A stretch of DNA of 64,000 nt, from the NCBI RefSeq assembly GCF_054482595.1, contig NZ_CM137008.1; one strand, written 5' to 3'. The translations under genes and the position numbers were made by a program. This document shows positions 198 to 6,259 of this stretch, piece after piece (positions within the stretch are counted from its first letter, which is position 1; the number at the start of each line of letters is the position of its first letter). The notes under the pieces were generated by a model. It searched no databases, was not told where the DNA came from, and was given only the letters and a program-made list of their open reading frames with translations.

Positions 198-1418
198 ATG
201 TCTCAGCCAATTACGCGTGAAAACTTTGATGAATGGATGATACCTGTTTACGCTCCGGCACCGTTTATACCGGTACGTGGCGAAGGTTCGCGCTTGTGGG
301 ATCAGCAGGGGAAAGAGTATATCGACTTCGCGGGTGGCATTGCGGTGAACGCGCTGGGCCATGCGCATCCGGAACTGCGTGAGGCGCTGAACGAACAGGC
401 GAGTAAGTTCTGGCATACCGGCAACGGTTACACCAACGAGCCGGTACTGCGACTGGCGAAAAAATTGATCGACGCCACGTTTGCCGATCGCGTCTTCTTT
501 TGTAACTCCGGTGCGGAAGCCAATGAAGCGGCGCTAAAACTGGCGCGTAAATTCGCTCACGACCGCTACGGCAGCCATAAGAGCGGTATCGTGGCGTTTA
601 AAAATGCGTTTCATGGTCGCACGCTGTTTACTGTTAGTGCGGGTGGGCAGCCAGCCTATTCACAGGATTTTGCGCCACTGCCACCAGATATCCGTCATGC
701 TGCATATAACGATATTAACTCTGCCAGCGCGCTGATTGACGACTCTACCTGTGCGGTGATTGTCGAACCCATCTAGGGGGAAGGCGGTGTGGTGCCAGCC
801 AGCAACGCATTTTTACAAGGTCTGCGTGAATTGTGTGATCGCCACAATGCGCTGTTGATTTTTGATGAAGTACAAACCGGCGTCGGGCGCACCGGGGAAC
901 TGTATGCCTATATGCACTACGGCGTGACGCCTGATCTGTTAACTACCGCCAAAGCGCTGGGCGGCGGTTTCCCGGTCGGTGCGTTGTTAGCAACCGAAGA
1001 GTGCGCCAGCGTGATGACCGTTGGCACTCATGGCACCACCTATGGCGGCAATCCGCTGGCCTCGGCGGTGGCAGGCAAAGTGCTGGAGCTCATCAATACG
1101 CCAGAGATGCTTAACGGGGTTAAGCAACGTCACGACTGGTTTGTTGAGCGTCTTAATACCATTAATCACCGCTACGGTTTGTTCAGTGAAGTTCGCGGCT
1201 TAGGTCTTTTGATTGGCTGTGTACTGAATGCCGATTACGCCGGGCAAGCGAAACAGATCTCTCAGGAAGCGGCGAAAGCAGGCGTGATGGTACTGATTGC
1301 GGGTGGCAACGTGGTGCGTTTTGCGCCTGCGCTCAATGTCAGCGAAGAAGAGGTGACGACCGGACTGGATCGCTTTGCTGCGGCCTGTGAACGCTTTGTG
1401 AGCGGAGGTTCATCATGA
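198..1418 (+). pseudogene. astC: succinylornithine transaminase astC, interrupted by in-frame TAG at 774-776
   Basis: ORFs 198..776 and 789..1418 are the same frame and together give full-length AstC; stop replaces Gln in the EPIQGEGG motif. Confidence 0.85.
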
Positions 1419-2449
1419 TGGTCATCCGTCCCGTTGAACGCTCAGATGTCTCGGCGCTGATGCAGCTTGCCAGCAAAACGGGCGGCGGCCTGACGTCGCT
1501 TCCCGCCAATGAAGCCACGCTTTCGGCGCGTATCGAAAGGGCAATCAAAACCTGGCAAGGCGAACTGCCCAAAAGTGAGCAGGGCTATGTGTTCGTGCTG
1601 GAAGATAGCGAGACAGGCACCGTGGCGGGGATTTGTGCCATTGAGGTGGCAGTTGGGCTGAACGATCCCTGGTACAACTATCGCGTCGGCACGCTGGTTC
1701 ACGCTTCGAAAGAGCTGAATGTCTATAACGCGCTGCCGACGCTGTTTCTCAGTAACGATCACACCGGCAGCAGCGAGCTGTGCACGCTGTTTCTCGACCC
1801 GGACTGGCGCAAAGAGGGCAACGGCTATTTGCTGTCGAAATCGCGCTTTATGTTTATGGCGGCTTTTCGCGACAAGTTTAATGACAAAGTGGTTGCTGAA
1901 ATGCGCGGGGTGATTGACGAACACGGCTATTCACCGTTCTGGCAAAGCCTCGGTAAACGCTTCTTTTCGATGGATTTTAGCCGCGCCGATTTTCTCTGCG
2001 GCACCGGGCAAAAGGCATTTATTGCAGAACTGATGCCGAAACATCCGATCTATACGCACTTTTTATCCCAGGAAGCCCAGGACGTCATCGGTCAGGTACA
2101 TCCGCAAACCGCGCCTGCCCGCGCGGTGCTGGAGAAAGAAGGTTTTCGTTACCGCAACTATATCGACATCTTCGACGGTGGGCCGACGCTTGAGTGTGAC
2201 ATCGACCGCGTGCGCGCCATCCGTAAAAGTCGGCTGGTGGAAGTGGCAGAAGGGCAGCCTGCGCAGGGCGATTTTCCGGCCTGCCTGGTCGCCAATGAAA
2301 ATTATCACCATTTCCGCGTGGTGCTGGTGCGTACCGATCCGGCAACCGAGCGTTTGATTTTAACCGCCGCACAACTCGATGCCCTCAAATGCCACGCAGG
2401 GGATCGCGTTCGTCTGGTGCGCCTGTGCGCAGAGGAGAAAACAGTATGA
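1415..2449 (+). CDS. astA: arginine N-succinyltransferase
   Basis: 344-aa [14 protein letters not shown] start, overlaps astC stop; operon position. Confidence 0.93.
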
Positions 2450-3958: not shown

Positions 3959-5298
3959 ACGCCTGGGAAGTTAATTTCGACGGGCTGGTAGGGCTGACGC
4001 ATCATTACGCGGGCCTGTCGTTTGGTAATGAAGCCTCTACCCGTCACCGTTTTCAGGTGTCTAACCCGCGACTGGCGGCAAAACAGGGCTTACTGAAAAT
4101 GAAAGCCCTTGCCGATGCGGGATTCCCCCAGGCCGTGATCCCGCCGCACGAGCGTCCGTTTATTCCGGTGTTGCGTCAGTTGGGATTCAGTGGTAGCGAT
4201 GAGCAGGTACTGGAAAAAGTTGCACGCCAGGCACCGCACTGGCTTTCCAGCGTCAGCTCCGCTTCGCCAATGTGGGTAGCCAATGCGGCAACGATCGCGC
4301 CATCTGCCGATACGCTGGATGGCAAAGTGCATCTCACCGTTGCCAACCTGAACAATAAATTTCACCGTTCGCTGGAAGCGCCCGTCACTGAATCGCTGTT
4401 AAAAGCGATTTTTAACGACGAAGAGAAATTTAGTGTCCATTCGGCGTTGCCGCAGGTAGCCTTGCTCGATGATGAGGGGGCGGCAAACCACAATCGTCTC
4501 GGCGGTCATTACGGTGAACCGGGTATGCAACTTTTTGTCTACGGGCGAGAAGAAGGCAATGATACCCGGCCTTCCCGTTATCCGGCGCGACAGACTCGCG
4601 AAGCCAGCGAGGCGGTGGCAAGGCTGAATCAGGTGAATCCCCAACAGGTGATTTTCGCCCAGCAAAACCCGGACGTTATCGACCAGGGCGTTTTTCATAA
4701 TGACGTGATTGCCGTGAGTAACCGCCAGGTGCTGTTTTGTCATCAACAGGCGTTCGCTCGACAGGCGCAGTTACTGGCAAACCTGCGTGCTCGGGTCAAT
4801 AGCTTTATGGCAATAGAGGTGCCCACGGCGCAGGTTTCCGTGTCGGATGCGGTGTCTACATATCTGTTCAACAGCCAACTGTTGAGCCGCGATGATGGTT
4901 CCATGATGTTGGTGCTGCCACAGGAGTGTCGGGAACACGCCGGAGTATGGTGTTATCTCAATGAACTCCTTGCCGCTGACAACCCGATCAGCGAACTAAA
5001 AGTCTTTGATTTACGTGAAAGCATGGCGAATGGCGGTGGCCCGGCGTGCCTGCGGTTGCGGGTGGTATTGACACAAGAAGAACGCCGGGCGGTGAATCCG
5101 GCGGTGATGATGAACGATACCTTGTTTAATGCGCTCAATGACTGGGTGGATCGTTACTACCGCGATCGTCTTACTGCTGCCGATCTGGCCGACCCGCAAT
5201 TGCTGCGCGAAGGGCGGGAAGCACTGGATGTATTGAGCCAATTACTGAATCTCGGTTCGGTTTATCCGTTCCAGCGCGAGGGAGGGGGCAATGGATAA
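3955..5298 (+). CDS. astB: N-succinylarginine dihydrolase
   Basis: 447-aa ORF, ATGA overlap with astD stop. Confidence 0.93.
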
Positions 5299-6259
5299 TT
5301 TTCTTGCTCTGACCTTAACGAGTAAAAAACCGGTTATCACCGAGCGAGAAATCAACGGTGTTCGCTGGCGCTGGCTGGGCGATGGTGTGCTGGAACTGAC
5401 GCCATTAACGCCACCGCAAGGCGCACTGGTGATTTCAGCGGGGATCCACGGTAATGAAACGGCTCCGGTGGAAATGCTGGACGCGTTGCTTGGCGCGATA
5501 TCTCACGGCGAGATCCCGTTACGTTGGCGGTTGCTGGTGATCCTCGGGAATCCTCCTGCGCTGAAGCAAGGGAAACGTTATTGCCATAGCGATATGAACC
5601 GAATGTTTGGCGGTCGTTGGCAGCTGTTTGCTGAAAGCGGAGAAACCTGTCGGGCGCGCGAACTGGAACAGTGCCTGGAAGATTTTTATGACCAGGGCAA
5701 AGAATCTGTGCGCTGGCACCTTGATCTACATACCGCAATTCGTGGCTCCTTGCATCCGCAGTTCGGTGTATTACCGCAACGCGACATTCCCTGGGACGAG
5801 AAATTTCTGACGTGGCTGGGTGCGGCGGGTCTGGAGGCACTGGTGTTCCATCAGGAGCCTGGTGGTACGTTTACCCATTTCAGCGCCAGACATTTTGGCG
5901 CGCTGGCCTGTACGCTGGAACTCGGCAAAGCGTTGCCCTTTGGGCAAAACGATCTTCGCCAGTTTGCAGTAACTGCCAGCGCAATTGCTGCGCTGCTATC
6001 TGGTGAGAGTGTTGGTATCGTGAGAACGCCGCCGCTCCGTTATCGGGTGGTTTCGCAAATTACTCGCCACTCGCCGTCCTTCGAAATGCATATGGCAAGT
6101 GACACGCTGAATTTTATGCCGTTTAAGAAAGGAACGTTGCTGGCGCAGGACGGTGAGGAACGTTTTACCGTAACCCATGATGTAGAGTATGTGTTATTCC
6201 CTAATCCGTTGGTAGCGTTGGGATTACGCGCGGGATTAATGCTCGAAAAAATAAGCTAA
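5291..6259 (+). CDS. astE: succinylglutamate desuccinylase
   Basis: 322-aa ORF overlapping astB end by 8 bp. Confidence 0.93.

Follow-up and report, generated by a model that had tools for sequence, protein, structure and literature searches.

A tandem duplication in astD and a later amber codon in astC: probable stepwise decay of the astCADBE operon in a natural Escherichia coli clone

The present study concerns the astCADBE operon, which encodes the arginine succinyltransferase (AST) pathway, in a stretch of 64,000 nucleotides of Escherichia coli DNA (RefSeq assembly GCF_054482595.1, contig NZ_CM137008.1; the whole of this stretch is called the window hereafter). Within the operon (positions 198-6259), astC is interrupted by an amber codon and astD by a 34-bp tandem duplication. 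We consider it probable that the operon underwent stepwise pseudogenisation in a natural E. coli clone, and that the second hit was effectively neutral once the pathway had been lost. N-succinylglutamate semialdehyde is the product of AstC and the substrate that AstD oxidises, such that the AST route would be interrupted at two successive steps. Isolates of the clone are hence predicted to have lost the use of arginine as a nitrogen source via this route.

The first 7 kb of the window represent the xthA-astCADBE-spy region of E. coli. Among 5,426 complete E. coli genomes in RefSeq, 5,425 have a match to this region (15 of them at ≥99% identity), and 5,421 match at least 80% of the operon length. 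The annotation of E. coli XH990, which is the nearest complete genome, shows all five genes of the operon as intact. When its sequence is aligned base by base with window positions 1-7000, exactly two differences emerge: position 774 reads T where XH990 has C, and the window holds an additional 34 bases near 3512-3545. The genes lie in the order astC-astA-astD-astB-astE on one strand, and all five have NCBIfam matches:

198-1418, + strand: astC (succinylornithine transaminase), pseudogene with amber codon (open reading frame (ORF) listing, XH990 comparison, NCBIfam PRK12381)
1415-2449, + strand: astA (arginine N-succinyltransferase), intact (DNA identical to XH990; NF007770 equivalog, 734 bits against a cut-off of 521, positions 1-343 of 344)
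2446-3958, + strand: astD (succinylglutamate-semialdehyde dehydrogenase), pseudogene frameshifted by the 34-bp tandem duplication (ORF listing, XH990 comparison, TIGR03240)
3955-5298, + strand: astB (N-succinylarginine dihydrolase), intact (DNA identical to XH990; TIGR03241, 805 bits against a cut-off of 538)
5291-6259, + strand: astE (succinylglutamate desuccinylase), intact (DNA identical to XH990; TIGR03242, 482 bits against a cut-off of 306)

An initial interpretation made from the letters of the window (the sequence-only reading) had described astA, astB and astE as intact, and this is borne out by their base identity with the intact annotated genes of XH990 and by full-length proteins that score above the equivalog cut-offs; the AstC and AstD fragments are collinear with their respective models. 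Since the number of substitutions in the three genes after the split from XH990 is zero, no ratio of nonsynonymous to synonymous substitution rates (dN/dS) can be computed for them. A survey of astCADBE in close relatives, which the same reading had proposed, found the operon intact in 14 complete genomes that are ≥99.9% identical.

The lesion in astD is a perfect tandem duplication, in which each base i from 3512 to 3553 equals base i+34 and which consequently forms a 42-bp repeat (34 + 8). Its parts are as follows:

3512-3545, + strand: duplication copy 1, CGTTGCTGACGCCGGGGATCATTGAAATGACAGG, the extra 34 bases (self-comparison)
3546-3579, + strand: duplication copy 2, which holds the premature TGA at 3568-3570 (self-comparison, translation)
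3580-3587, + strand: 8-bp direct repeat CGTTGCTG, present in the ancestor on both sides of the 34-bp unit (ancestral versus derived sequence)

As a result, AstD is frameshifted after residue 369 and meets a stop five codons later, which leaves a protein of 374 instead of 492 amino acids. The N-terminal fragment covers positions 1-371 and the C-terminal fragment positions 363-484 of the 484 positions of TIGR03240, and the alignment to 3ju8, a homologue of known structure, passes through the break point without interruption. Residues 370-492, including the EEVFGP motif, are cut off from the body of the enzyme. As 34 is not a multiple of 3 and the frameshift truncates the protein within a conserved domain, astD would have to be regarded as a pseudogene. 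We attribute the duplication to replication slippage, since in the ancestral sequence a direct repeat of 8 bp stood on either side of the 34-bp unit; microhomology of this extent goes far beyond chance and marks slipped-strand mispairing. The available sequences point to a single origin of the duplication. A search for it on two further common E. coli backgrounds, in which the repeat is conserved, gave no result; this is a weak test, given that assemblies made at k=31 break at the repeat. A sigma70-like site across the duplication (3538-3567) was also considered and discarded, as its weak match of 9/12 lies within the number expected from shuffles.

The second lesion, the C>T change at 774, converts codon 193 of the 406 codons of astC from Gln (CAG) to TAG and leaves a product of 192 amino acids (198-776). 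The site is the following:

773-777, + strand: CTAGG derived from the Dcm site CCAGG, with TAG at 774-776 as codon 193 (XH990 comparison)

The base changed is the second (inner) C of the ancestral CCAGG, the one that Dcm methylates, and with a CCWGG ancestor and C>T at the second C the change conforms to the Dcm hotspot pattern. The two AstC fragments match positions 1-192 and 199-405 of the 406 positions of PRK12381 with 417 and 395 bits, each below the cut-off of 630 bits. The stop precedes Asp223 and Gln226 as well as Lys252, which forms the Schiff base with pyridoxal phosphate (PLP) (PMC3590144). With a premature stop that removes residues essential for catalysis, astC is likewise predicted to be a pseudogene.

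A search of all 5,426 complete E. coli genomes in RefSeq found neither lesion, and the 14 nearest of them have an intact operon, so that no close relative among the complete genomes shares the changes. Taken alone, this absence could have hinted that one lesion, or even both, arose as an artefact of sequencing or assembly. We give this explanation next to no weight, as both lesions recur in independent assemblies from different projects and pipelines. Over 8,776 bp, the NCBI assembly GCA_029471405.1 (L004) matches the window at 100% identity, both lesions included; GCA_958334905.1 (L008) carries the duplication only; and several Logan SRA runs as well as an ENA metagenome contig add to this evidence, as does the biological slippage signature of the duplication. 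The 192-aa AstC product is recorded in 61 blocks of a large assembly collection, and the exact 374-aa truncated AstD is encoded on at least 16 contigs, one of them being the ENA metagenome contig. The clone with the double lesion is thus well represented in public data. Accordingly, the claim of the sequence-only reading that two lesions of different type had struck one operon was confirmed base by base and in independent assemblies, and sequencing error, which that reading had itself named as a possible objection, is excluded as the source of either of them.

The Logan assemblies, which use k=31, display a peculiarity at this locus. One of their contigs, L007 (with eight similar places), matches the window at 100% identity, contains the amber codon and ends exactly at window position 3541, because a de Bruijn graph at k=31 must branch there given the 42-bp repeat. 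A contig end one k-mer into a repeat could represent a fingerprint of short tandem duplications that cannot be spanned at this k, and lesions like the 34-bp duplication would be under-reported in Logan.

The order of the two events can be deduced from the relatives. In XH990, TUM18780 and 88COLEC the operon is intact, and the double lesion is carried by the window, L004 and L007. Between them stands L008 (with up to 14 similar places), which shares 13.5 kb with the window base for base, duplication included, apart from having C at 774 and lacking the deletion in chbC; its astC is intact and encodes 406 amino acids. The genotypes are hence nested, from an intact operon via the astD duplication only to the duplication together with the astC amber codon. 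Since this intermediate with the duplication alone exists, astD broke first and astC second, and the astC stop would have arisen in an operon that was already dead.

Polarised against three relatives, five changes over 64 kb are private to the lineage of the window, namely the two ast lesions, a deletion in chbC, tcyP H96Y and selO D11N; two further differences between the window and XH990 are private to XH990. The chbC deletion (window 11209-11213) is an in-frame loss of 3 bp (ancestral GCCTCAACCATT to GCCTCCATT) that removes one Thr from the chitobiose phosphotransferase system (PTS) IIC subunit. The deletion is confined to the double-lesion lineage, and neither L008 nor any close complete genome has it. 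The three private single-nucleotide changes, at 774, 20790 (tcyP H96Y) and 40793 (selO D11N), are all G:C>A:T transitions and all protein-changing. More generally, each of the five private events changes a protein, with not one synonymous or intergenic change among them, and the numbers are too small for a test.

On these grounds we propose the following course of events. In the ancestor of a small clade, slippage between copies of CGTTGCTG 34 bp apart duplicated 34 bp in astD, thereby shifting the frame after residue 369 and parting the last 123 residues, EEVFGP included, from the catalytic body. In the sub-clade to which the window belongs, the inner C of the Dcm site CCAGG in astC then changed to T and produced an amber codon at Gln193, ahead of Lys252. 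With no function left to protect after the first lesion, this second one would have been effectively neutral, and it would have fallen on a site whose mutation rate is raised about tenfold.

The sequence-only reading had suggested relaxed or negative selection on the pathway. The first part of this suggestion fits with the duplication-only intermediate and with second hits in other lineages that carry one ast null allele, whereas the second part, selection for loss, is without evidence, given the hotspot nature of the mutated site and the occurrence of astC Q193* alone in two further assemblies (L005 and L006). Double lesions were encountered in L015 (SRR36243488; astC Q151* and a stop at codon 316 of astA), L023 (SRR19889888; astC R85* and Q193*) and L045/L046 (ERZ28664286 and GCA_050028695.1; astA Q56* and a 303-aa AstD), and because these carry two lesions each, multi-hit decay of ast is not unique to the clone of the window. 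In addition, true nonsense alleles were found at 7/7 of the astC and astA sites tested, which suggests that AST null alleles are widely tolerated in E. coli as sporadic variants. The picture across the species thus agrees with selection on AST that is weak in the short term, and with free decay once a first hit has occurred.

It could also be imagined that loss of the whole AST pathway was selected for in the niche of the clone, for example because arginine would be spared for acid resistance, polyamines or protein synthesis, in which case both lesions would be adaptive. In line with this idea, two of the five private events in 64 kb inactivate ast genes and all five are protein-altering, and astC and astA null alleles occur in many E. 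coli lineages, some of them clonally expanded. We nevertheless consider it quite unlikely. The pathway is already abolished by one lesion, to which a second adds nothing; the retention of at least 80% of the operon length in nearly all complete genomes, with the lesions in none of them, points to long-term purifying selection across the species; and a simple mutational explanation is available for each lesion. Moreover, by position alone, the probability that two of five private events fall in a 6-kb operon within 64 kb is P ~0.07, which is not significant. Requiring that both ast events be inactivating makes the coincidence rarer, but elsewhere selection removes inactivating mutations, and one of the two lies on a hotspot.

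A different adaptive scenario concerns the second hit alone. In a cell devoid of AstD, the enzymes AstA, AstB and AstC would go on turning arginine into N-succinylglutamate semialdehyde, a reactive dead-end aldehyde that would accumulate at the expense of succinyl-CoA, and the loss of astC could therefore have been selected. The order of events, astD first and astC second, fits such a scenario, and astC represents both the step directly upstream of the block, according to the established pathway order (PMC3590144), and the first gene of the operon. The double genotype is also sampled more often (about 20 of 24 contigs inspected versus 16 contigs with the AstD product), yet sampling frequency reflects epidemiology and not fitness. 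That the second hit was adaptive in this way seems unlikely to us, since astC Q193* occurs alone with an intact astD in L005 and L006, and further stops in astC and astA are found where astD bears no lesion, which means that no astD defect is needed for such alleles to appear. Furthermore, the site is a mutational hotspot, and the clade with the duplication only persists (at least L008, with up to 14 similar places). In the literature searched, there was no report of ast pseudogenes in E. coli lineages and none of aldehyde toxicity in astD mutants. If it were true, the operon would provide a natural and phylogenetically ordered case of epistasis-driven pathway shutdown.

Effective neutrality of the second hit, as we prefer to read it, draws on the mutability of the site. 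Dcm sites are classical 5-methylcytosine amber hotspots in lacI, where they are over-represented about tenfold (PMC12606429). In the ast operon, astC Q193* is also found in L005 and L006, the backgrounds of which are ~3.5% divergent from the window, and L023 represents a fourth background with this allele, such that, besides that of the window, at least three E. coli backgrounds acquired astC Q193* on their own (at least four in total). A recombinational spread of the amber allele between backgrounds finds no support, as L005 and L006 each differ from their own nearest complete genome over 8,776 bp solely by C774T.

Because non-Dcm control stops recur too, the recurrence of astC Q193* alone proves little at the present depth of sampling, be it as evidence for a hotspot or for selection. 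Block counts per truncated product were likewise rejected as a hotspot measure, given that they are inflated by gene cuts at contig ends and by clonal expansion; for the essential-gene control nadE Q120*, 28 blocks were recorded, and every place listed was a contig-end truncation. We therefore turned to a within-codon comparison. At Trp47 and Trp86 of astA, both located in CCTGG, the TAG predicted from Dcm and the TGA arising from the adjacent G yield the same truncated protein, which keeps product, selection and detectability constant. Counted as independent background clusters, 9 TAG stood against 1 TGA (one-sided binomial P = 0.011), a ratio close to the classical tenfold. The Dcm hotspot mechanism thus appears well supported for the ast operon, and we infer it for the single event at 774, the chemistry of which would be deamination of 5-methylcytosine at a presumably methylated site. 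The dcm gene itself is located outside the window.

Among the truncated products, astA Q56* (CAG>TAG, window-equivalent position 1580; L044 and 17 similar places) is recorded in 200 blocks that represent two sequence backgrounds only. Its carrier looks like a widely sampled clone predicted to lack the first AST enzyme.

Several points weigh against stepwise decay with a neutral second hit. Its neutrality would rest on one event. The hotspot is invisible in crude counts, as the non-Dcm stops R85*, Q151* and Q156*, situated in the same conserved prefix of AstC, are true stops in 2-4 backgrounds each, and the non-Dcm stop astA Q56* occurs in more collection blocks than any Dcm site, owing to clonal expansion. 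The astC lesion alone might be leaky, since ArgD is biochemically interchangeable with AstC (PMC3590144). Lastly, the AstD fragments (1-369 and 365-492) jointly cover all residues, and together with a restart ATG this may allow residual activity of a split enzyme.

As to translation behind the two stops, two elements can be put forward from which it might resume:

789-794, + strand: candidate restart GTGs (789 and 792) for a 208/209-aa C-terminal fragment of AstC (gene callers start the 208-aa product at 792 in L004-L007; its translation is predicted)
3572-3958, + strand: ORF in the native astD frame with ATG at 3572, residues 365-492 (128 aa), its end overlapping the astB start (called as a 128-aa Aldedh gene in L008/L009; its translation is predicted)

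The GTGs are situated 12-15 nt past the astC stop and are preceded by a Shine-Dalgarno (SD)-like stretch, with an anti-SD pairing of -9.3 kcal/mol that lies in the range of the native ast genes; the ATG follows 1 nt past the premature astD stop (UGAAAUG), with an anti-SD pairing of -5.7 kcal/mol. C-rich, G-poor windows are nearly absent downstream of both stops. We would thus expect translational restart and weak polarity on the downstream genes, and strong polarity on astB and astE, two genes for which the sequence-only reading had considered polarity possible, appears doubtful.

One could go further and suppose that the pathway still works, with complementing AstD fragments being produced by restart and the transaminase step being provided by ArgD or by the AstC fragments. 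The position of the restart ATG in the native frame directly behind the astD stop speaks for this idea, as do the five residues by which the two AstD fragments overlap while covering the whole protein, the strong SD-like sequence ahead of the astC restart GTGs and the functional interchangeability of ArgD and AstC. Nonetheless, we regard a functional pathway as very improbable. The AstD split lies inside the catalytic domain, just before EEVFGP, and argD is repressed by arginine. The AstC cut parts Lys252 from the N-terminal half of the protein, and the fragments lack residues 193-198 (QGEGGV) including Glu195, which is placed near the Schiff base (PMC3590144). A precedent for such a split enzyme did not come to light.

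Upstream of the operon, the region 1-197 is identical to that of XH990 and contains one further element:

110-125, + strand: sigma54-type promoter-like site TGGCAC-N5-CTGCA (TGGCACGAACCCTGCA), upstream of astC (consensus-like match, unchanged in the lineage)

The sequence-only reading had placed a candidate sigma54 promoter, which still looked intact, at 108-123. A candidate site is indeed present and its sequence is unchanged compared to the relatives, while its true coordinates lie two bases further downstream. It represents the sole match in the 64-kb window, yet at least one match also occurs in 22 of 100 shuffles. Control of astCADBE by RpoN, NtrC, RpoS and ArgR has been described (PMC3590144).

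Elsewhere in the window, homology to the XH990 annotation identifies espL1, which encodes a type III effector (~27020-28920), and the ghoS antitoxin gene (~24320-24610). According to the annotation tables of the relatives, ghoS has no ghoT annotated beside it.

The value of the locus is that of a worked example, in which two classical mechanisms of spontaneous mutation met in one 6-kb operon and three stages (intact, one hit, two hits) can be followed in public assemblies. In practical terms, the astC amber and astD duplication alleles can be used as clade markers, and annotation pipelines will give split genes at both astC and astD. With regard to the species, AST null alleles are common standing variation in E. 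coli, and Dcm sites would shape which of them arise. Pathway biology and mutation mechanisms were known already and are left unchanged by this case, which is one of ordinary decay of a dispensable pathway.

Compared to the astCADBE operon of E. coli K-12, which is controlled by RpoN/NtrC, RpoS, ArgR and CRP, the operon in the window has the same five genes in the same order, the same overlapping stop and start codons, an xthA-ast-spy-ves neighbourhood like that of K-12 and a candidate sigma54-type site upstream, and differs in that astC and astD are interrupted. The amber codon resembles the lacI amber hotspots of Coulondre and Miller in that CCAGG becomes CTAGG, in that a Gln codon CAG is turned into amber and in its recurrence in independent lineages; in addition, at the two Dcm sites of astA, the predicted allele prevails 9:1 over the neighbouring-base allele. 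Unlike those hotspots, it concerns a catabolic operon in natural populations and not a laboratory selection, and methylation of the site is presumed. The duplication shares with classical slipped-strand duplications, such as the lacI frameshift hotspot, the perfect head-to-tail copies and a unit bounded by an 8-bp direct repeat, whereas the astD case has a single origin as far as visible. Lastly, the succession of lesions is reminiscent of the pseudogenisation in Shigella and host-restricted Salmonella, where a first hit ends the function, more hits accumulate and nested genotypes are visible. In contrast to the decay in those organisms, that of the ast operon is very recent and local, and the window bears no sign of genome-wide decay or of an expansion of insertion sequences.

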